A stretch of DNA of 33,560 nucleotides from Patescibacteria group bacterium (GTDB lineage Bacteria > Patescibacteriota > Minisyncoccia > Phycocordibacterales > UBA9973): positions 1 through 33,560 of the forward strand of contig JAHJBA010000057.1 in assembly GCA_018813625.1 (NCBI GenBank). Direction: 5' to 3'. A model generated the notes under the pieces. That model was not told the DNA's origin. It did no database searches and saw only the letters and a program-made list of their open reading frames with translations. Positions 4,420-31,595 of this stretch are shown piece after piece (position 1 is the first letter of the stretch; every line of letters begins with the position of its first letter). The position numbers were made by a program, and so were the translations under genes.

Positions 4420-4455
4420 AGCCTTTTGTTTTGACAACACGAGGCTTTTTTTATT
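4419..4455 (+). terminator. Putative rho-independent terminator
   Basis: AGCCTTTTGTT-ttgac-AACACGAGGCT hairpin followed by TTTTTTTATTT. Confidence 0.55.
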
Positions 4456-4457
4456 TG

Positions 4458-4525
4458 ATCCCGTAGTAGATTTTGATGATGCCCTTAAGGCGCGCTTTGC
4501 GCTTCATCAAAATTCACTACCGGAT
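4458..4525. repeat. Family C palindromic element, copy C2
   Basis: ATCCCGTAGTAGATTTTGATGA ... GCGCGCTTTGCGC ... TCATCAAAATTCACTACCGGAT. About 22-bp arms, preceded by TTGAT; the last T begins the TTGACA -35 box. Confidence 0.85.
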
Positions 4526-4552
4526 TGACATTGTTTTCTAATTTGCTATTAT
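4525..4552 (+). promoter_or_regulatory. Sigma70-like promoter upstream of tuf
   Basis: TTGACA (4525-4530), 16-nt spacer, TATTAT (4547-4552). Confidence 0.6.
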
Positions 4553-4741
4553 CTTAGGTAACTGCACTTTCGGCAGTTTTTCTATTGCTAATTTATTAAT
4601 TTTAGTAATATTAAATTATTAACAATAATCCCGACGTAAAATCGGGACTCCGATCTAAAGGGTCGGAGTTTAGTTAAATTAGTAATTAAGCCTTAGCGAC
4701 TGGTTCTCGTACGTTAAGTTTTAATTATTAAAAATAAAAAT

Positions 4742-5963: not shown

Positions 5964-6407
5964 ATGACAACATCAGAAACAAAAGTAAAAAAGCCGAAAG
6001 CGGTAAAAGCGACAAAAGCAACGAAGACAGTTAAAGCAGTCGCTAAAACGACCACTAAGGATTCCAAAGAGCCGAAAACAAAAAAGAAAAAAGAGGATGG
6101 GAAAGTGGTACTTCGCATCAGAGTTCGTGCCTACGAGAGCAAGATACTAGATGCGTCAGTCAAACAAATTATAGATACCGCAATGCGTTACGATGCCACT
6201 GTCGTTGGGCCGGTTCCTTTGCCAACGGAGATTAAGAAATATACGGTTAATCGTGCTTCTTTTATCTACAAAAATACACGAGAACAATTTGAAATAAGAG
6301 TACATAAAAGATTAATTGATATTATTAACCCGTCAGCAAAAACAGTTGAAGCGCTTACTAACCTTTCGCTTCCTTCGGGAGTTGATATTGACGTGAAGAT
6401 GCTGTAA
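5964..6407 (+). CDS. rpsJ: 30S ribosomal protein S10 with a ~45-aa Lys-rich N-terminal extension
   Basis: The C-terminal ~100 aa (LRIRVRAYESKILD...PLPT...) are canonical S10. The N-terminus is KKPKAVKATKATK...KTKKKK. Confidence 0.95.
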   Translation: MTTSETKVKKPKAVKATKATKTVKAVAKTTTKDSKEPKTKKKKEDGKVVLRIRVRAYESKILDASVKQIIDTAMRYDATVVGPVPLPTEIKKYTVNRASFIYKNTREQFEIRVHKRLIDIINPSAKTVEALTNLSLPSGVDIDVKML

Positions 6408-6414
6408 GAAGGAA

Positions 6415-6544
6415 ATGAATCCCGTTAGAAGCCGCGATCGCAATTTAAAAATAGATAAAAATATGAAATCAAATATAGAAAAAATTAATAACATAAAACA
6501 TCAGATATGCGAGTTGATCGCGATCTGCTTCTAAACAGGATGAA
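6415..6544 (+). repeat. Family A start-codon hairpin element, copy A1 (between rpsJ and rplC)
   Basis: ATGAA|TCCCGTTAGAAGCCGCGATCGC ...~75 nt A-rich... GATCGCGATCTGCTTCTAAACAGG|ATGAA. Long inverted repeat with a duplicated ATGAA. Confidence 0.85.
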
Positions 6545-7154
6545 ATTTATTCTTGGAACAAAAGAAAATATGATTGAGTATTTTTCTGAAGACGGTACAG
6601 TCATACCTGTAACGGCTGTTTTGGCTGGTCCAGTGACCGTGACCAGGGTGTTTGAAAAATCCAAGGATGGATATAATGCGGTGCAGGTTGGTTTTGGTGT
6701 TCAAAAAAAACACAGAATAAGCAAAGCAAGTATAGGCCAAATGAAAGGTGGTTTTTACAAAAATCTTAAGGAATTCAGACTAAAGCCCACCGATTCAACC
6801 GATTTCAAAGAAGGTGACATAATTGATGTCTCGGCTTTTTCCATTGGCGATAAATTGATAATTTCTGGTACTTCAAAAGGAAAAGGTTTTCAGGGAGTCG
6901 TTAAGCGACATGGCTTTGGTGGTGGTCCTAGAACGCACGGGCAGAAACATTCAGAAAGAGAACCTGGATCGATTGGTGGGGGACTAAGAACCCATGTTCC
7001 TAAAGGGATGAGGATGGCAGGTAGAATGGGACAGGATCGTATCACTCAGAAAAATTTGAAGGTTATTTTCACAGACAAGGAAAATAACATTATGTTAATT
7101 AAGGGTGCAGTACCTGGCAGGCGTGGCAGTTTGGTTGAAATAATAAGTAGATAG
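6540..7154 (+). CDS. rplC: 50S ribosomal protein L3
   Basis: MKFILGTKENM... is a canonical L3 N-terminus; KGKGFQGVVKRHGFGGGPRTHG motif. The track start at 6507 lies inside repeat A1. Confidence 0.93.
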   Translation: MKFILGTKENMIEYFSEDGTVIPVTAVLAGPVTVTRVFEKSKDGYNAVQVGFGVQKKHRISKASIGQMKGGFYKNLKEFRLKPTDSTDFKEGDIIDVSAFSIGDKLIISGTSKGKGFQGVVKRHGFGGGPRTHGQKHSEREPGSIGGGLRTHVPKGMRMAGRMGQDRITQKNLKVIFTDKENNIMLIKGAVPGRRGSLVEIISR

Positions 7155-7156
7155 AT

Positions 7157-7284
7157 ATGGATCCCGTTAGAAGTCGCGATCGCGATTATAATGGAAATAA
7201 AAACATGAAAGAAGATAATAAAACACAAAAAAATATTGAAACTTCCGAAAATACCAGATCGCGACCTACTTCTAACGGGATGGA
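7157..7284 (+). repeat. Family A element, copy A2 (between rplC and rplD)
   Basis: ATGGA|TCCCGTTAGAAGTCGCGATCGCG ... AGATCGCGACCTACTTCTAACGGG|ATGGA. 14-bp perfect outer stem plus a 7-bp CGCGATC/GATCGCG inner stem. Confidence 0.85.
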
Positions 7285-7939
7285 AGCAAAAATTTACAAT
7301 CAAAAAGGAATTGAAAAAGGAAAAATAATTCTTTCAGAGAAGGTTTTTGGTGCTAAGTGGCGAGCTGATTTGGTTCATCAGGTCGTAGAAGGCATGCGTT
7401 CTAATAAAAGAGCTGGTACAGCGGATACAAAAGGTAGAGGGGAGGTTTCTGGAGGAGGAAAGAAGCCTTGGAAACAAAAAGGAACAGGACGTGCTCGTCA
7501 TGGATCCACACGAAGCCCTATTTGGGTTGGAGGGGGTGTTACCCATGGGCCTCTTGCAGAAAAGAACTATAAAAGGAAGATTTCGAAGACAATGCGTGCA
7601 CAAGCTTTATTTTCAGTTTTGTCAAAAAAATTAAAAGACGAGGAGATACTCTTTGTTGATTCTTTATCCTTGCCCGGAATTAAGACAAAAGACGCCGTGG
7701 AAGTAATGAAAAATTTAGCTAAGGCCTCAGGATTTAAAATGATCGCTGAATCAAAAAAACCTAAAGCTCTTGTGGCTCTCTATGAGAGAAACGAGAAAGC
7801 AGAAAAAAGTTTTAGAAATTTATCTCAACTTGAAATGGTTTTTTTAAAAAACTTAAACCCCGTAGATGTTTTGAATCATAGATATCTTTTGATAGAAAAT
7901 CCAGAAGAAAGTGTTAAGTTTTTAGAAAGTCGAGGTTAA
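7280..7939 (+). CDS. rplD: 50S ribosomal protein L4
   Basis: MEAKIYNQKG...; KPWKQKGTGRARHGSTRSPIWVGGGVTHGP motif. The upstream in-frame 41 codons (from 7157) are repeat A2. Confidence 0.88.
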   Translation: MEAKIYNQKGIEKGKIILSEKVFGAKWRADLVHQVVEGMRSNKRAGTADTKGRGEVSGGGKKPWKQKGTGRARHGSTRSPIWVGGGVTHGPLAEKNYKRKISKTMRAQALFSVLSKKLKDEEILFVDSLSLPGIKTKDAVEVMKNLAKASGFKMIAESKKPKALVALYERNEKAEKSFRNLSQLEMVFLKNLNPVDVLNHRYLLIENPEESVKFLESRG

Positions 7940-7943
7940 AAAT

Positions 7944-8016
7944 ATACTTGTCCCGTGCTAAATTTTTGATTACGGGGCATAAAGATGAAGATTATTAATA
8001 AAATTTTAGTACTGGG
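7944..8016 (+). repeat. Family B hairpin element, copy B1 (between rplD and rplW)
   Basis: ATACTTGTCCCGTGCTAAATTTTTGATTACGGGGCATAAAGATGAAGATTATTAATAAAATTTTAGTACTGGG, immediately followed by the ATG of rplW. Confidence 0.85.
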
Positions 8017-8292
8017 ATGATAACGATGAAAATAATTAAAAAACCAAGAGTTACCGAGAAGGCATCTTTCGTGGCAGAACAGAATGTTTACACTTTTGAT
8101 GTCCCAAAGTCTGCAAATAAAACGGAGATTAAAAAAGCAATTTTTGAACTTTATAAAGTAAAGCCAGTTAAAGTAAATATTTTAACAGTTCCATCAAAGA
8201 AGATTTTTGTTAGAGGAAAAGTTGGGACAAAGAGTGGTGGTAAAAAAGTTCTTGTTTATTTAAAAAAAGAAGATAAGATAGAAATTATTTAA
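8017..8292 (+). CDS. rplW: 50S ribosomal protein L23
   Basis: IIKKPRVTEKA... is L23-like; position between L4 and L2. The start could also be the ATG at 8026. Confidence 0.92.
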   Translation: MITMKIIKKPRVTEKASFVAEQNVYTFDVPKSANKTEIKKAIFELYKVKPVKVNILTVPSKKIFVRGKVGTKSGGKKVLVYLKKEDKIEII

Positions 8293-15307: not shown

Positions 15308-15379
15308 TACTTGTCCCGTACTAAATTTTTGATTACGGGGCATAACAATGAAGATTATTAATAAAATTTTAGTACTGGG
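15308..15379 (+). repeat. Family B hairpin element, copy B2 (between rpsE and rplO, in the usual L30 slot)
   Basis: TACTTGTCCCGTACTAAATTTTTGATTACGGGGCATAACAATGAAGATTATTAATAAAATTTTAGTACTGGG followed by the ATG of rplO. Confidence 0.85.
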
Positions 15380-15817
15380 ATGCAGATACATAATTTAAAA
15401 AGACAACATAAGAACAAAAAAGATCGCATGGTTGGCCGTGGAGGAAAACATGCAAAAACATCGGGTCGTGGAGGTAAGGGGCAGACCGCAAGGGCTGGCA
15501 ATAAGCGACGTCCGGAATTACGTGATATCATAAAAAAATTACCGAAAAACCGTGGATATAAATTTAATTCTTTTCAAATAAAACCGGTTGGTGTTTCGTT
15601 TGATAAAATAATGGGAGCATATTCGAATGGTGGGACAGTTGACCCTATTAGTCTACTTGAATTGAAGATAATAAGTAAAAAGAAAGGGATTGTTCCAAAA
15701 GTTAAAATTTTGAACGGCAAAAAAGACTTTAACTTAAAAATAAAAATTTCAAAGTGTTTTGTTTCTGATTCTGTTAAAAAAAAGATAGCAGAATTGGGCG
15801 GAGAAATTGAACTATAA
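15380..15817 (+). CDS. rplO: 50S ribosomal protein L15
   Basis: GRGGKHAKTSGRGGKGQTARAG motif; position before secY. Confidence 0.93.
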   Translation: MQIHNLKRQHKNKKDRMVGRGGKHAKTSGRGGKGQTARAGNKRRPELRDIIKKLPKNRGYKFNSFQIKPVGVSFDKIMGAYSNGGTVDPISLLELKIISKKKGIVPKVKILNGKKDFNLKIKISKCFVSDSVKKKIAELGGEIEL

Positions 15818-17093: not shown

Positions 17094-17099
17094 TTTTTG

Positions 17100-17164
17100 A
17101 CCTGGTAGTGAATTTTGATGATATTTAAATGCGTTTTGCGCGTCATCAAAATCTACTACCGGGT
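17100..17164. repeat. Family C palindromic element, copy C3 (arms in flipped orientation)
   Basis: ACCTGGTAGTGAATTTTGATGA ... GCGTTTTGCGC ... TCATCAAAATCTACTACCGGGT. Preceded by TTGAC; the last T begins the TTGATT -35 box. Confidence 0.85.
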
Positions 17165-17192
17165 TGATTATTTTCTAAAAAGTGTGTATTCT
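17164..17192 (+). promoter_or_regulatory. Sigma70-like promoter of adk; geometry predicts a leaderless mRNA
   Basis: TTGATT (17164-17169), 17-nt spacer, TATTCT (17187-17192), then 6 nt to the ATG at 17199. Confidence 0.55.
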
Positions 17193-17198
17193 TTTGAT

Positions 17199-17783: not shown

Positions 17784-17856
17784 TACTTGTCCCGTATGAA
17801 ATTTTTGATTAAACGAAATAAAGATGAATACAAAAAATAAAAATTTTCATACTGGG
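17783..17856 (+). repeat. Family B hairpin element, copy B3 (divergent; between adk and the pyrH-like gene)
   Basis: ATACTTGTCCCGTATGAAATTTTTGATTAAACGAAATAAAGATGAATACAAAAAATAAAAATTTTCATACTGGG followed by ATG at 17857. Both arms changed in a compensatory way. Confidence 0.8.
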
Positions 17857-18537
17857 ATGGAAGAAATAATAATCATTTCACTCGGAGGTTCACTCATTAT
17901 TCCCGATCAGATAGATGTGGATTTTTTGAAAGACTTCAAAAATCTGATTCTTTTGCATATTTCACAAGGGAAAAAATTTATAATCATAACCGGCGGTGGA
18001 AAGATCTGCAGAAGGTATCAAGAAGTTGCTAAAGAAATTTCGAATCCCTCAAATGAAGACTTAGATTGGATAGGGATTGCTTCTCTTAAACTAAATGCGG
18101 AACTGCTCAGGGTTATTTTTAGTGAAAAGGCACACGAAAAAGTTGTTAGTGATCCACACCAGAAATTGTCTTTTGAAAAGCCGATTATCATTTGTTCAGC
18201 TTATAAGCCTGGAAGGAGTACGGATTGGGATACCGTGATAGTGGCCAAGAATGTTGGTGCCAAAAAAGTAATCAATCTTTCGAACATTGACTATGTTTAT
18301 GATTCTGACCCGAAGATAAACCCAAATGCTAAAAAGATAGAAAAGATATCTTGGGCGGAATATCGTTCAATTATCCCAAAAGAATGGAATCCAGGCTTAA
18401 ATACTCCTTTTGACCCTATTGCTTCAGAAATGGCTGAAAAAGAGGGAATGCAGGTCGTAATTATGAACGGCAAGCCAGTGAGTAATTTAGCTAAGTGTTT
18501 GAATGGCGAGAAGTTTCTTGGAACGATAATAGAATGA
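17857..18537 (+). CDS. pyrH: Amino-acid-kinase-fold protein, archaeal-type UMP kinase-like
   Basis: MEEIIIISLGGS..., ITGGGK, ...SDPKINPNAKKIEKIS... and ...GTIIE resemble archaeal-type uridylate kinases of ~225 aa. The start is chosen at the ATG that follows repeat B3. Confidence 0.7.
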   Translation: MEEIIIISLGGSLIIPDQIDVDFLKDFKNLILLHISQGKKFIIITGGGKICRRYQEVAKEISNPSNEDLDWIGIASLKLNAELLRVIFSEKAHEKVVSDPHQKLSFEKPIIICSAYKPGRSTDWDTVIVAKNVGAKKVINLSNIDYVYDSDPKINPNAKKIEKISWAEYRSIIPKEWNPGLNTPFDPIASEMAEKEGMQVVIMNGKPVSNLAKCLNGEKFLGTIIE

Positions 18538-20201
18538 ACGAAAAAAACGAAAAAAAAATATGTAAGACTTGTGGAAAGGATTTTGAAATAAGAAAAGAGG
18601 ATTTTATATTTTTTAAACAGGTAAAAACTGCGTCACCACTAGATTGTCCTGATTGTCGCATGGCGAGGCGTTTAGTGTTTCGGAATGAAAGAACTCTTTA
18701 TAAGAGAGCGTGTGATCTTTGTAAAAGAGATTTAATAACAGTTTATTCGCCAGAATCAGATTTTAAGGTTTATTGTCATGATTGTTGGTGGAGTGATTCT
18801 TGGGATCCAAAAAGCTTTGCGATGAATTATGATTTAAATAAATCTTTTTTTGAACAATATAAAGAGTTACAAAAAAAAGTTCCTAGACAAAGCATGGCAG
18901 CGGTAAATAATGTTAGAAGTGATTATACTAATGGTTCTGCGGAAAATAAAGACTGTTATTTAATTTTTGCTGCTGATTATAATGAGGACTGCATGTATGG
19001 TAGGTTGCTTCAAAGAGATAAAAATTGTCTTGATTGTGCTTTTTTGCATGAATCAGAACTTTGTTATGAATGTATTGATTCTAGAAGTTGTTTTAAGTGT
19101 ATGTTTTGCGAGCAATGTCAGTCATCAAGTGATTTGCTGTTTTGTTATAATATGAGAGATTCAAATAATTGTATTCTTTGTACAAATGGAAGACATTTAT
19201 CTAATTCAATTTTAAATGTTAAATATTCTAAAGAAGAATTTGAAAAGAAAAAAGCTGAAATTCTTTCTAGTTATGAAAATATTGAAAAAGCAAAAGAAGA
19301 GTTTTCTGAATTAAAGAAAAATACTATTGTAAAATATGCTTGTCAAACAAAATGTAACGAGGTTACTGGTAATTATTTACACAATTGTCATCAGGGAATA
19401 ATGCTTTATGATACTTATGATTCAAAAAACTGTTCTTATATGACAGATACCGAAAGTCCTATTGACAGTCAAGACTGTAATAATTATTATTATAAACCAC
19501 AATTTGGATATAACGTTATGGGAGCATTAGAAGGTAGTCAATTAAAAAATAGTGCTTTCGTTTTTTATTGTAACGAAGTTGAATATTGTGAAAATTGTCA
19601 TCATTTAATAAACGGGATAGGATGTAGCGCTATTCGCAGAGGGGAATATATGATTCTTAACAAACAATACACAAAAGAAGAATATTATAAGTTGAAAGAA
19701 AAGATAGAAGAACAGATGAAAAAGGAAGGAACTTACGGGCAATTTTTTCCAGCTGAACTTGCGCCGTTCGGATATAATGAAACATTAGCGCAAGATTATA
19801 TTCCATTAAAAAAAGAAGAAGCTTTGAAAAGAGGTTTTAGTTGGCAAGAAAAAATAACAGGTACTTATGGAAAAGAAACCATTAAAAAAAGCGAGATACC
19901 AAGTTCTATAGAAAATATAGATGAAAGTATTTTAAAAGAAATATTAGTGTGTGAAGAATGTAATAAAAATTTTAGAATTACTGAAGCAGAGTTAAGTTTT
20001 TACAAAAGAATGCATTTACCATTACCACATAAAGATTTTGAGTGTAGACATAAAGATAGAATGTTAAAGAGAAATCCACGTAAACTCTGGCATAGAAAAT
20101 GCATGAAAGAAGGTTGTAAGAATGAATTTGAGACAAGTTATGCACCTGATCGACCAGAGATTGTATATTGTGAGGACTGTTATAAAAAAGAGGTATACTA
20201 A
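18534..20201 (+). CDS. Cysteine-rich protein (555 aa) with homologous zinc-ribbon-like modules at both termini; function unknown
   Basis: The ATG overlaps the pyrH-like stop (ATGA at 18534-18537). N-terminal CKTCGKDF...CPDCR...CDLC...CHDCWW and C-terminal CEECNKNF...ECRHKDR...CEDCY. The central region is dense in C-x2-C. Confidence 0.8.
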   Translation: MNEKNEKKICKTCGKDFEIRKEDFIFFKQVKTASPLDCPDCRMARRLVFRNERTLYKRACDLCKRDLITVYSPESDFKVYCHDCWWSDSWDPKSFAMNYDLNKSFFEQYKELQKKVPRQSMAAVNNVRSDYTNGSAENKDCYLIFAADYNEDCMYGRLLQRDKNCLDCAFLHESELCYECIDSRSCFKCMFCEQCQSSSDLLFCYNMRDSNNCILCTNGRHLSNSILNVKYSKEEFEKKKAEILSSYENIEKAKEEFSELKKNTIVKYACQTKCNEVTGNYLHNCHQGIMLYDTYDSKNCSYMTDTESPIDSQDCNNYYYKPQFGYNVMGALEGSQLKNSAFVFYCNEVEYCENCHHLINGIGCSAIRRGEYMILNKQYTKEEYYKLKEKIEEQMKKEGTYGQFFPAELAPFGYNETLAQDYIPLKKEEALKRGFSWQEKITGTYGKETIKKSEIPSSIENIDESILKEILVCEECNKNFRITEAELSFYKRMHLPLPHKDFECRHKDRMLKRNPRKLWHRKCMKEGCKNEFETSYAPDRPEIVYCEDCYKKEVY

Positions 20202-20203
20202 AA

Positions 20204-20276
20204 ATACTTGTCCCGTACTGAATTTTTGATTACGGGGCATAAAGATGAAGATTATTAATAAAATTTTAGTACTGGG
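20204..20276 (+). repeat. Family B hairpin element, copy B4 (between the Cys-rich ORF and map)
   Basis: ATACTTGTCCCGTACTGAATTTTTGATTACGGGGCATAAAGATGAAGATTATTAATAAAATTTTAGTACTGGG followed by the ATG of map. Confidence 0.85.
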
Positions 20277-21047
20277 ATGGCAATAATAATTAAAACACCA
20301 GAGGAAATAAAAATAATAAGAGAAGGAGGGAAAAGACTCGCTACTGTTTTAAACAAAGTTAAGGAGATGGTTGCTCCTGGTATTTCGACTAAGGATTTGG
20401 ACGATTATGCAAGAAAGCTTATCAGTGAGATGGGAGACTATCCATCTTTTTTAAATTATTCACCCGATGGTGCCAGCAAGCCCTATCCAGCGGCTCTTTG
20501 CGTATCGGTTAATGATGAAGTTGTACACGGCATTCCTAACAAAGATAGAATTTTGCAAGAAGGAGATATCGTTTCTATAGATCTGGGATTGAAGCATAAA
20601 AATCTTTTTACCGACATGGCCATGACAGTTTCGGTTGGCGAAATAAGTTCGTCTTCAAAGAAGCTTTTAGAAACAACGGAGAGGGCATTGTATGTTGGAA
20701 TAAATGCTGTGCGAGCAGGAAATAGAATAGGAGATATAGGTCATGCTATAGAAAGTTTTGTTCGTCCACATAGGTATGGCATTGTAGAAGTTTTGGCGGG
20801 GCATGGTGTTGGTAAGGCGGTTCACGAGGATCCATATATTACAAATTTTGGCAAAAAGGGAATGGGGGAGAAATTAGTTCCAGGTATGGTTATAGCCATA
20901 GAGCCGATGATAAATAATGGAACTAAAAATGTGACCCTAGATAAGGACGGTTATACTTTTCGTACCGCAGACGGAAAAAAGAGTGCACACTTCGAGCACA
21001 CCATTCTTGTCACGGAAGGGGAGCCAGAAATCTTGACTCGAATATAA
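20277..21047 (+). CDS. map: Type I methionine aminopeptidase
   Basis: 256 aa; HGIPN, DxG...D, HGVG, EPM and EHT metal-ligand pattern. Confidence 0.96.
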   Translation: MAIIIKTPEEIKIIREGGKRLATVLNKVKEMVAPGISTKDLDDYARKLISEMGDYPSFLNYSPDGASKPYPAALCVSVNDEVVHGIPNKDRILQEGDIVSIDLGLKHKNLFTDMAMTVSVGEISSSSKKLLETTERALYVGINAVRAGNRIGDIGHAIESFVRPHRYGIVEVLAGHGVGKAVHEDPYITNFGKKGMGEKLVPGMVIAIEPMINNGTKNVTLDKDGYTFRTADGKKSAHFEHTILVTEGEPEILTRI

Positions 21048-29150: not shown

Positions 29151-30488
29151 CAACCGGACTTGGTTAAATATAGTATTTATGCGATTTTCTTCTTTGGCCT
29201 CGCCAATTATGCGTATTACTGGCTCAGTATTGGAGGGTCTAATATGAACCCATGAAGAGTCTGGCCAGTCGAAGCGTAGGCCGTCTAGGGTGTTTGTAGA
29301 TGCCTCTTTGAACTTTGCCTTAAGTTTCTCATAAAGTAGAGTTAGGTCGCCAGAAAAGGTAATTTTATCTTTTTTCATAAAATATTTAGGCAGGCTCTCT
29401 ATAATTTCTGATATATTTTTTTTCTCTCTTGCCATAAGCTCGAGAACAAGAGCAATACCGGCCAGGCTATCTCTGGCTGTATTTATTTTAGAATAAATGA
29501 CCCCACCATTTCCTTCTCCTCCTATGAGTGCGCCTCTTTCAATCATTTTTTCGACTACATTAGGTTCGCCGACTTTTGTTCTAAAAACTTTTTTATTGTA
29601 ATTATTTGCCAAGTCTTCACACATTTTTGAGGTAGACATATTTAAGATCACATCGCTAGGGTTTTTAGATAGAACACTTTTTACGGCGAGTGCTAGTGTA
29701 TATTCTTCATTTAAAATTTCTCCTTTTTCATTTGCGAGTACCAGACGGTCAGCATCGGGGTCCTGGGCGAATCCTATATCTGAATTATTTTTAGAGACTG
29801 CTTCCGCTAGTTGTTTTAAATTTTTTGCCAGTGGTTCTGGTTCGTGCGCGAATTCTCCATTTTGTTCTTCGTTGATTTGAGAAACTTCACAGCCGAGTTC
29901 CTCCAGTAATTTTTTTGTGATTGTACTGCCTGCGCTATTTATAGGATCGTGGGTAACTTTAAATTTTTTGCTTTTGATCAGGTTTACGTCTATATTTTTT
30001 AATACTTCTTTTATGTGTATCTTTTGATAGCTAGAATTGTCGCAAACTTCTTCCTCATTTTCTTTTTGTGAAAAATTTTTTTCATCTTCAATTAAATTTT
30101 TTCTATTTTCCTCGATTTTTTCTATTTCTTTTTGGGTGGCGAATAGACCATTTTTATTTATAAATTTAAGACCGTTATATTCTCTAGGATTATGCGAAGC
30201 AGTTATCATTATTCCTCCACCAAAAGAGAGTTTTCTTGCTAGAAGAAGCATCGATGGAGTAGGGATGATGCCGGCGTATTCTCCCTCTAAGCCTTCTTTT
30301 TTTAATGCTAATTTTATAGCTTTAAATATTTGTGGTCCGGTTTTGCGTGCATCTCGCCCGATTAAAATTTTATGGCCTCCTTGTTCTTTTATCATTTTTG
30401 CAAAAGCACGCCCAAAATCAAAAGCGATTTTCTCGTCTAAATCTTTGCCCCATATTCCTCTATATCCCGAAACATTCAATTTTGGCAT
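29142..30488 (-). CDS. glmM: Phosphoglucosamine mutase / phosphohexomutase family protein
   Basis: ITASHNPREYNGLKF phosphoserine loop; DPDADR; GGEGNGG. The gene symbol is tentative because PGM/PMM cannot be excluded. Confidence 0.8.
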   Translation of the reverse strand: MPKLNVSGYRGIWGKDLDEKIAFDFGRAFAKMIKEQGGHKILIGRDARKTGPQIFKAIKLALKKEGLEGEYAGIIPTPSMLLLARKLSFGGGIMITASHNPREYNGLKFINKNGLFATQKEIEKIEENRKNLIEDEKNFSQKENEEEVCDNSSYQKIHIKEVLKNIDVNLIKSKKFKVTHDPINSAGSTITKKLLEELGCEVSQINEEQNGEFAHEPEPLAKNLKQLAEAVSKNNSDIGFAQDPDADRLVLANEKGEILNEEYTLALAVKSVLSKNPSDVILNMSTSKMCEDLANNYNKKVFRTKVGEPNVVEKMIERGALIGGEGNGGVIYSKINTARDSLAGIALVLELMAREKKNISEIIESLPKYFMKKDKITFSGDLTLLYEKLKAKFKEASTNTLDGLRFDWPDSSWVHIRPSNTEPVIRIIGEAKEENRINTIFNQVRLIL

Positions 30489-31420: not shown

Positions 31421-31452
31421 AAATTTTTATCCTTTTCTTTGCTCATTTTTTA

Positions 31453-31461
31453 TGCTAATAT
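31453..31461 (+). promoter_or_regulatory. Extended -10 promoter (TGcTAATAT) positioned 6 nt before the first ATG of element A4
   Basis: TG at 31453-31454, TAATAT at 31456-31461, then CTACGC, then ATG at 31468. Confidence 0.45.
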
Positions 31462-31467
31462 CTACGC

Positions 31468-31595
31468 ATGGATCCCGTTAGAAATCATTCAGTTAATTGA
31501 AATTACGGGAAATAATATATTGAATTAGCTTGTATAGTCGTTTTTAGTAATTTAACTACGGAAATCTAAAGATTTCCTATTTCTAACGGGATGGA
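31468..31595 (+). repeat. Family A element, copy A4 (on the ftsH start codon)
   Basis: ATGGA|TCCCGTTAGAAAT ... ATTTCTAACGGG|ATGGA. 14-bp perfect terminal stem; the interior differs from A1-A3 and has the internal hairpin GGAAATC-taaa-GATTTCC. Confidence 0.85.

Follow-up and report, generated by a model that had tools for sequence, protein, structure and literature searches.

A palindromic, MITE-like insertion at start codons in Patescibacteria and a leader frame that may carry translation through it

In a contig of a Patescibacteria group bacterium, 33.6 kb long and of 36.5% G+C (the window in what follows, meaning that stretch as a whole), the beginning of rplC, the gene for ribosomal protein L3, is present twice, with a long hairpin separating the two copies of its start codon. 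This locus raises the question of what the hairpin, here called A1 and the first copy of a family A, might be, and of how L3 could be translated from a start codon at its base. The surroundings are the str/S10/spc ribosomal-protein cluster, with secY, adk, infC-rpmI-rplT, tmRNA/smpB and ftsH elsewhere in the window. The homologues of its L3 assign the contig to Patescibacteria, Minisyncoccia, Nomurabacteria and Paceibacterota being among the names of their sources. The answer we favour, with a probability of roughly 0.62, is that A1 is a palindromic, non-autonomous element resembling a MITE (miniature inverted-repeat transposable element), which lands on start codons with a duplication of 4-5 bp and would be made harmless by translation of a leader frame and re-initiation.

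The site occupies positions 6415-6544 and has the order TAA (rpsJ)-GAAGGAA-ATGAA-TCCCGTTAGAAG...CTTCTAAACAGG-ATGAA; reading 5' to 3' after the first ATGAA, one passes TCCCGTTAGAAGCCGCGATCGC, an A-rich loop, GATCGCGATCTGCTTCTAAACAGG and ATGAAATTT. Re-reading the sequence returned the coordinates, the letters, the 39-codon frame and the TAA at 6532-6534 just as the original prediction, made from the sequence alone, had given them. The component features are as follows.

6405..6407, plus strand: stop codon TAA of rpsJ, 7 nt upstream of ATG1; the product contains an S10 domain
6415..6419, plus strand: left target copy ATGAA, including ATG1 (6415-6417), which retains the original upstream context
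6420..6540, plus strand: element A1, the terminal A of which (6540) doubles as the A of the real start codon
6420-6441, plus strand: 5' arm of A1, TCCCGTTAGAAGCCGCGATCGC, from the sequence and RNAfold
6516-6540, plus strand: 3' arm of A1, GATCGCGATCTGCTTCTAAACAGGA, with the bulge ATCT at 6523-6526
6415..6534, plus strand: leader frame from ATG1, 39 codons (MNPVRSRDRN...IAICF), its stop TAA 6532-6534 lying within the right terminal repeat
6463..6534, plus strand: internal start ATG 6463-6465 (context AAAAATATGAAA) and its 23-codon frame, indel-free in the A1 subfamily in other genomes
6540..7154, plus strand: rplC (L3, 204 aa, MKFILG...), starting at ATG2, 6540-6542, by homologue lengths; the A and U of ATG2 are paired at the base of the stem

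The second ATG had been taken as the canonical L3 start, and we agree that ATG2 is the true one because nearly all of the 120 listed L3 homologues are 204 aa long. The TAA at 6532-6534 is separated from it by 5 nt. The imperfect stem with a C.A mismatch and a bulge was likewise recovered by RNAfold, which folds the arms into a long stem interrupted by one C.A mismatch and, in the 3' arm, by a bulge of 4 nt, AUCU (6523-6526); the layout is 12 bp, the 4-nt bulge and a further 8-9 bp, about 21 bp altogether. The energy is -25.8 kcal/mol (z = -2.7), with z values of -5.7, -4.8 and -3.2 for the sister copies. The 11-mer TCCCGTTAGAA, which forms the tip of the element, occurs 6 times in the window as against 0.56 times expected, a number reached by none of 100 shuffles. 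The same A1 and A2 insertions are present in an independent assembly of run SRR2540949, with contig ends inside the repeats. An assembly artefact was rejected in view of this independent assembly and of the many metagenomes that carry the element.

Three further copies on start codons had been predicted, at 7157, 28514 (minus strand) and 31468. They were found to lie at rplD, rpmI and ftsH, respectively, each with ATGRA on both sides.

7157..7282, plus strand: copy A2, rplD; ATGGA 7157-7161, element 7162-7280, ATG2 7280-7282
28391..28514, minus strand: copy A3, between infC and rpmI; ATGAA 28514-28510, element 28509-28393, ATG2 of rpmI 28393-28391
31468..31593, plus strand: copy A4, before ftsH; ATGGA 31468-31472, element 31473-31591, ATG2 31591-31593

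Through A2 runs an open frame in the same phase as rplD, giving a possible 41-aa extension, while ATG1 of A4 lies 6 nt past a -10-like TAATAT. Beyond the window, metagenomes were scanned with the pattern TCCCGTTAGAA, N70-100, TTCTAA, N0-1, CGGGA, in which the tips are specified and the flanks are not, and at least 120 stretches were obtained. Several of these hits are on JGI contigs of 0.6-0.75 Mb, such as Ga0155180_11, Ga0074198_1000007 and Ga0076053_15. Two sets of copies are used below: one of 88, made up of the window and loci L082-L165 (all from the metagenome scan except L082), and one of 123, made up of the window and loci L082-L205. The elements are 94-122 nt long and have terminal inverted repeats, TCCCGTTAGAAG and CTTCTAACGGGA, with perfect tips TCCCGTTAGAA...TTCTAACGGGA and with lengthening by covarying pairs; the frames inside them are of only 6-39 codons and the peptides are not conserved. 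Interior similarity between copies is detectable in only 19 pairs, most interiors being unrelated. An A1 subfamily can nevertheless be recognised (window A1, L099, L109, L114, L172 and L178), which elsewhere sits at other genes, for example rplV in L099. The claim that the loop is not conserved thus has to be amended: within this subfamily the loop is conserved across genomes, internal ATG and 23-codon frame included.

We obtained close relatives by exact-protein look-ups, and looked there for the empty sites that the original prediction had proposed at orthologous rpsJ-rplC junctions. Such sites were found in relatives with L3 72-88% identical to that of the window: the junction is compact, comprising stop, short spacer and ATGAAATT, in L083 and L084 (88% identity each), L002 (79%), L003 (76%) and L004 (72%). 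The rplC-rplD junction is similarly empty (...AGATA-spacer-ATGGAAGC) in L002, L083, L084 and L085 (80%), and the insertion is missing from L003 and L004 too; the rplD-rplW site of L083 is also empty. The window junctions equal these empty sequences of the relatives plus the element and one additional (A)TGNN. In L085 a different hairpin, with TCCCG...CGGGA tips, lies at the same rplC ATG, and this site has therefore been hit independently. At the level of sequence comparison, family A is established as an insertion that is absent in close relatives; it is widespread but patchy in Patescibacteria of the Paceibacteria/Nomurabacteria type. Near-identical copies are also met within one genome, both in family B of the window (94-96%; described below) and in a pair of copies at L134.

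That L134 pair (minus strand, 6316-6476 and 7907-8034) occupies two genes 1.6 kb apart, with ATGAG duplicated at both, and the 3' arm of one of the two copies is interrupted by a nested insertion, about 40 nt long. At L164 (6131-6367) two family A copies stand in tandem with TGA alone between them. A further copy, at L082 149-252 (IMGVR_UViG_3300021077_000216), lies at one end of a contig of 6.6 kb that is filed as viral, a putative assignment; it has ATGAA flanks and TTGACA-N17-TATACT upstream. A BLAST comparison of A2 with phage records gave no match.

The positions of the copies are strikingly uniform. In the 88-copy set the terminal A and the following TG form ATG on exactly one strand in 83 copies and on neither strand in the other 5. 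In the larger set ATG2 opens an open reading frame (ORF) of at least 50 codons, or one reaching the contig end, in 116/123 copies (median ORF 191 codons), and a perfect 5-nt ATGNN duplication is present in 84/123, most of the others being off by one base. The duplicated NN is AA in 57 copies, GA in 15, AG in 6 and CG in 3, with single instances of AT, TA and AC. Since NN varies by site yet matches on both sides, the target has truly been duplicated, and the repeat is no recombination core. In some copies GTGTA, GTGCG or TTGAA on the left faces ATGTA, ATGCG or ATGAA, respectively, on the right. The duplication is thus probably one of 4 bp (TGNN), the A being contributed by the element, with later mutation of ATG1 as an alternative source of mismatched left copies; of the duplicated ATGAA originally described, the duplication stands, and its length is what probably needs correcting. 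As judged from the junctions, duplication and terminal A together restore an intact ATG, while the left copy holds the old upstream context and, at ATGA overlaps, preserves the stop of the upstream gene.

Beyond (A)TG[AG][AG], nothing marks out the flanks but the A/T richness usual at gene starts. TGRR occurs 1046 times in the window, 21 times at gene starts and 42 times in non-coding DNA outside the elements. With 21 of these 63 non-coding TGRR at starts, about 33% of copies should be at starts if insertion were random and coding hits were then purged. The proportion observed is 94%, and to explain the difference either start codons must be actively preferred or other intergenic sites selected against. 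We consider it highly probable that family A represents mobile insertion specific to start codons. The start-codon-targeting MITE with target duplication, which was one of several possibilities raised at the outset, is strongly borne out by the empty sites, the more than 120 copies in unrelated metagenomes and the 83/88 placement on an ATG with a long ORF behind it.

The second part of the question concerns translation. The right terminal repeat and the start codon together read TTCTAACGGGATGA, from which three outcomes follow according to reading frame: a TAA 4 nt before the ATG, a TGA overlapping the ATG (in ATGA genes), or in-frame entry into the gene. An ATG-started frame that ends at the right-repeat TAA, 4-5 nt before ATG2 (-7/-8), is found on the sense strand in 66/123 copies. 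The comparison values for such TAA-terminated frames are listed here.

Flipped elements: 16
Interior shuffled: 26.8 +/- 4.7, maximum 39 in 200 shuffles
Loop-only shuffle: 32.2 +/- 4.0, maximum 46 in 300 shuffles
Frames starting upstream of the 3' arm: observed 58, loop-only shuffle 20.7 +/- 4.0
Internal ATG frames, ATG1 present: 44/94, 17.3 expected
Internal ATG frames, ATG1 absent: 14/29, 5.6 expected

Frames from ATG1 that span the entire element number 27 and are of 33-39 codons. Some ATG frame reaches ATG2 in 89/123 copies, and only 4 of the 94 copies having ATG1 are in-frame fusions with the downstream gene. The leader peptides are alike only where the terminal repeats encode them (MNPVR..., and ...CF or ...YF), and a coding N-terminal extension was rejected as an explanation, the frames not being conserved. 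In the A1 subfamily the internal 23-codon frame has no indels and the preceding 20 nt has three. The frame counts may be regarded as largely independent because the copy interiors are mostly unrelated. We read the enrichment as a sign that what is selected is passage of ribosomes across the 3' arm as far as the real start, and not a peptide, and the suggestion that a frame through the element melts the stem and permits re-initiation gains statistical support from it (66/123 as against 32 +/- 4 with shuffled loops and 16 in flipped elements).

The genomic setting can be described in the same terms. Gene starts in the window are A/T-rich upstream and have no Shine-Dalgarno motif. A same-strand upstream ORF stops no more than 60 nt away in 64/117 copies, 14 of them at ATGA stop/start overlaps, and the copies not near upstream stops are promoter-proximal. 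The transcript of A4 may start at ATG1 itself. There are -10-like boxes only 6 nt upstream of the adk ATG (about 17196; TATTCT, 17164-17198) and of the ftsH ATG1 (TAATAT, 31450-31470); with the general lack of Shine-Dalgarno motifs, they suggest leaderless or Shine-Dalgarno-independent initiation in this organism.

The mechanism that we propose would run as follows. A trans-acting transposase, which the duplication leads us to infer, would cut (A)TGRA with a stagger of 4-5 bp. Once transcribed, the element would fold into the stem of about 21 bp, where the real start codon would have its A and U paired and so be masked. Ribosomes would begin at ATG1 or at a start within the loop, read the leader through the 3' arm and so melt the stem. 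The built-in TAA would then halt them 4-5 nt short of the ATG, and they would re-initiate, unless new ribosomes used the ATG so exposed; inside operons, the stem could likewise be opened by ribosomes that finish the upstream cistron. The element would on this account be a genome parasite fitted to a gene-dense genome nearly devoid of Shine-Dalgarno sequences, in which a start codon is one of the few harmless places. For the leader frame with re-initiation, taken separately as the way in which the genes stay expressed, the frame statistics incline us only a little to the affirmative side.

Several observations count against this account. A search of the window and of 2.15 Mb of related loci for unpaired ends, and for ends with matching duplications 170-4000 bp apart, yielded neither an autonomous partner nor a transposase. 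A TAA-terminated ATG frame is lacking in 57/123 copies, any ATG frame to ATG2 is lacking in 34/123, and the ATG1 frame of A4 is of only 10 codons. The copies of family B have no duplication. The start-codon location could owe much to purifying selection instead of target choice. Sense folds are only 0.9 kcal/mol better than antisense folds (p = 0.03), with G.U pairs numbering 360 as against 299, which is too weak to be a strong sign of RNA-specific selection on the stem. Lastly, the orientation bias (97%) exceeds the prevalence of the frame, which is hence insufficient to explain it.

Separately from these points, each candidate long element in L177, L134, L090 and L188 resolved into short elements that adjoin one another, one gene start after the next, and a Pfam scan of the unassigned ORFs of the window contained no transposase, recombinase or reverse transcriptase.

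The orientation bias itself was measured through the bulge motif YCT-RY-TTCTAACGGGA, which occupies the 3' arm of 66 copies and has its mirror image on the 5' arm of 2; a sequence-motif count was employed since calls by minimum free energy are too noisy. Interior similarity between copies is on the same strand in all 19 pairs, the lone opposite-strand pair being one element counted twice. The flipped copies L143 and L180 carry perfect duplications, and insertion is therefore possible in either orientation. A3 is inverted along with its minus-strand gene, so that orientation follows the gene and not the replication strand. Just inside the part of the stem fixed by the search, 61 copies have G-C and 52 have A-T at position 12, while T-A (69 copies) and C-G (43) alternate at position 13; G.T pairs number 0-1 at these positions and A.C is equally rare. 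Covariation so strictly Watson-Crick indicates pairing of a DNA-like kind, as in the ends of mobile elements.

A bolder reading goes further than the mechanism above in supposing that the integration machinery itself reads start sites, in an ATG-specific and strand-specific manner with a 4-5 bp duplication, and delivers helix, leader and stop as a module. Genomes without Shine-Dalgarno sequences would put up with this module and may have co-opted it for coupling or for expression tuning of ribosomal-protein and other housekeeping genes, with sister families acting likewise at other signals (family C, by its TTGA duplication, at the -35 box). We hold this to be possible, if rather doubtful.

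Less likely again is that the element is an RNase III-type hairpin in which a cut on the 3' side frees the downstream cistron with a short unstructured leader while the hairpin stays with the upstream RNA, flipped copies, whose hairpin would remain on the downstream mRNA, having been purged. This would account for the orientation bias, the one-sided YCT bulge (3' arm 66 as against 2) is in keeping with it, and the asymmetric geometry of about 21 bp is compatible. Phage T7 processing signals with an asymmetric internal loop receive a single cut. Correia elements of Neisseria are, according to a passage in PMC2649163, MITEs that RNase III binds and either cleaves or leaves protected. Set against this, a recognisable bulge motif is present in only about half of the copies, neither G.U enrichment nor a sense-strand stability bias is seen, and the enriched read-through frames imply that the intact hairpin is translated, not removed. 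Processing of this kind would be compatible with the leader model.

A purely selfish element, with a transposase preferring TGRA and all other insertions lethal in a genome about 90% coding, would make frame and orientation mere by-products of coding ancestry or composition. The Watson-Crick covariation does fit an element acting at the DNA level, the flanks conserve nothing past (A)TG[AG][AG], start codons are missed by a few copies, and among the flipped ones there are perfect duplications. Yet non-start intergenic TGRR outnumber start sites by 42 to 21 while 94% of copies are at starts, and, despite mostly unrelated interiors, the frequency of the TAA-terminated frame is at least double that in composition-matched shuffles and four times that in flipped copies; the peptides, being non-conserved, exclude inherited coding sequence as the cause. 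We find this explanation improbable.

Equally improbable, in our estimation, is recombination of a single-stranded hairpin after the fashion of attC sites, of HUH or IS200-IS605 elements or of REPIN-RAYT systems, with the folded strand and the extrahelical bases of the 3' arm fixing the orientation. The whole element is indeed one imperfect hairpin with a conserved one-sided bulge, its pairing is strictly Watson-Crick, and its orientation is fixed relative to an asymmetric target; the tips GTTAGAA and TTCTAAC presumably resemble attC core sequences. The core-like motifs are, though, in the order opposite to that of attC. The variable NN matching on both sides bespeaks a staggered cut and fill-in, whereas site-specific or HUH recombination leaves no duplication or a constant core. 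Both strands of the window are used (A1, A2 and A4 plus, A3 minus), contrary to a replication-strand rule, and the Pfam scan of the window's unassigned ORFs revealed no recombinase or HUH gene nearby.

We give little credence to a regulatory switch, in which the 5' tip TCCCGTTAG would pair either with the 3' tip, masking the start, or with an internal (T)AACGGG, leaving it free in the manner of an attenuator. A second ACGGG is present about 20 nt from the 5' end in 26/123 copies, as against 2 at the mirror position and about 2 in shuffles, and an internal ACGGG is seen in A3, A4 and family B. Such a feature is confined to about one fifth of the copies and missing from A1 and A2; unrelated housekeeping genes and absence in close relatives make a common signal implausible, and the data point to no ligand or protein partner. 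In the copies that do have ACGGG, a local hairpin, TCCCGTTA...TAACGGGA, rivals the long stem.

A bypass device had also been envisaged. In such a device ATG1 (ATGAA) would be the take-off site and ATG2 (ATGAA) the landing site, and ribosomes would leave the hairpin unread. Take-off and landing codons flank a hairpin in T4 gene 60 and the yeast mitochondrial byps, and identical pentanucleotides flank a stable one here; the idea found no support and is very unlikely to be right, since target duplication accounts for the pentanucleotides (NN follows the target), the enriched conventional read-through frames to a stop at -7 are not what it predicts, the duplicated codon is one of initiation so that no nascent peptide could drive hopping, and family B copies are altogether without ATG1. 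We also dismissed a terminator (there is no U tract and the elements are inside essential operons), a ribosomal-protein operator (the elements are at unrelated genes and absent in relatives) and an intron or bulge-helix-bulge motif, the geometry of which is not present.

An Rfam scan of the whole window at E <= 1 gave no match at any element, its only hits, to tmRNA and two sub-threshold leaders, being elsewhere. In the literature searched no description of a comparable element was found, and a 2024 review of prokaryotic MITEs (PMC10969869) is without the words 'start codon'. The original prediction knew of no described class combining these features, and neither Rfam nor the literature searched supplied one. 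Family A is a mobile element of unusual and apparently undescribed lifestyle, in kind a MITE: it has no transposase gene, it has terminal inverted repeats and a duplication of variable sequence, its copies are dispersed and its sites are empty in relatives. With bacterial MITEs such as Correia/NEMIS, ERIC, RUP, bcr1 and Nezha it shares short length, inverted repeats, duplication, dispersal, presence/absence variation, co-transcription and hairpins (PMC10969869). Whereas the known families use TA-type targets or enter intergenic DNA blind to signals and in both orientations, family A uses the start-codon (A)TGNN in one orientation; it also differs from them in rebuilding the ATG and in having a leader frame that stops 4-5 nt before it.

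Rickettsia palindromic elements provide a second comparison, being palindromes of about 100-150 bp in a reduced genome that are compatible with translation at or in genes (PMC10969869). They are inserted in-frame inside ORFs and encode a conserved peptide, unlike family A, with its fusions in 4/94 copies, its unconserved peptides, its start-codon site and its duplication. Mycobacterial interspersed repetitive units (MIRU) are intercistronic operon repeats, oriented with the genes, with small frames overlapping neighbouring stop and start codons that suggest translational coupling. Family A is similar in its intercistronic frames overlapping stop and start codons, and dissimilar in that MIRU are direct tandem repeats lacking inverted repeats, hairpin and start-codon duplication. 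Starts sequestered in a helix and opened by upstream translation ending beside them are familiar from the MS2 coat and replicase genes, from ATGA junctions and from shunting in cauliflower mosaic virus (CaMV), with its short ORF and stem. By its sequence, family A has the hallmark of such a coupling leader, a frame that crosses the putative masking helix and stops a few nucleotides before the start. Those systems are fixed in particular genes or viruses, while in family A the module of helix, leader and stop is portable on a mobile element.

One-sided extrahelical bases can dictate the choice of strand and orientation in attC sites. The elements of that group, namely REPIN/RAYT, IS200/IS605-derived elements and attC, are likewise hairpin repeats of similar size (REPIN/RAYT: PMC8049555, PMC5581495). 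REPIN and IS200-IS605 elements have no variable duplication, a one-sided fixed tetranucleotide, separate subterminal hairpins or REP doublets, and 5' GTAG; family A has the two-sided variable NN, a single hairpin along its whole length and no GTAG. The order in attC is RYYYAAC...GTTRRRY, reversed in family A (GTTAGAA 5', TTCTAAC 3'), which differs further in its essential-operon sites and target duplication. Bypass elements have matching take-off and landing codons within an ORF that only the jump makes continuous, but in family A the repeated codon is the initiation codon, conventional frames are enriched, and family B dispenses with the first codon.

Two related families are present in the window. 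The first, family B, comprises four hairpins of about 72 nt, three of them 94-96% identical to the reference copy and the fourth 65%.

7946..8019, plus strand: family B copy 1, rplW; TCCCGT...GGGA tips, abutting the ATG, no ATGNN duplication
15309-15382 (rplO), 17785-17859 (amino-acid-kinase gene) and 20206-20279 (map): sister copies of family B

In this family a conserved 5' (T)ACTTG pairs with the AUG through a G.U wobble, and an ATG frame in the loop traverses the 3' arm. A CYTG extension at the 5' end, as in family B, is also found in the metagenome copies L090, L102, L140, L153 and L177. The rplW site of family B is empty in L083. The second family, C, is associated with promoters.

4455..4528, plus strand: family C copy 2, tuf; TTGA, then TCCCGTAGTAG...CTACCGGA, then TTGACA, the right TTGA being the -35 of the tuf promoter (N16, TATTAT)
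About 1808-1872, 17096-17167 and 29153-29078 (minus): sister copies of family C

The duplication in family C is the 4-bp TTGA; in 3 of the 4 copies (tuf, adk and infC) the right-hand one coincides with the -35 box of a sigma-70-like promoter. Upstream of tuf the site is empty in L083, where it reads TTGAATTTGACA, which may be an excision footprint. The superfamily as a whole seems to sit on gene-expression signals and to rebuild them.

Other observations in the window concern individual genes. A glmM-like gene (29142-30488, minus strand) has its stop codon within the 5' arm of family C copy C4 (29142-29153), and the insertion has therefore replaced the last few codons of the gene. The 5' leader of tuf contains, at 4629-4670, a 41-nt insertion of two mini-hairpins, TCCCGACGTAAAATCGGGA and CTCCGATCTAAAGGGTCGGAG, that is absent from L083. 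The called rpsJ gene (5964-6407) encodes 147 aa, of which residues 51-145 form the S10 domain; its N-terminus of about 50 aa, rich in Lys, Thr and Ala, is missing from the 96-aa rpsJ called in L083 and is either a lineage-specific extension or the result of a start called too early. A 935-aa ORF at 21723-24530 weakly matches coupling-protein domains of the TraG/TrwB type and ATPase domains of the HerA type, and a 568-aa ORF at 18495-20201 has no Pfam match; the neighbours of both are housekeeping genes.

There are practical consequences for annotation. Gene callers extend L3 to 215 aa (6507-7154; true length 204) and L4 to 260 aa (7157-7939; true length 219), and a similar case is seen in L085 at 904-1551. 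Public protein sets hold artificially long ribosomal proteins wherever the elements occur, and assemblies break at the repeats. Should the enzyme be found, it would be a start-codon-specific transposase and a possible tool for inserting tags or leaders; if its machinery does read start sites, this would be the first known case of homing to start codons by a transposable element. For bacteria without Shine-Dalgarno sequences, the elements offer a natural experiment in how start codons are selected and unmasked. For the family itself, they show how a mobile element can persist where non-coding DNA is scarce, its duplication rebuilding the signal that insertion splits and the element bringing what appears to be a read-through leader of its own.

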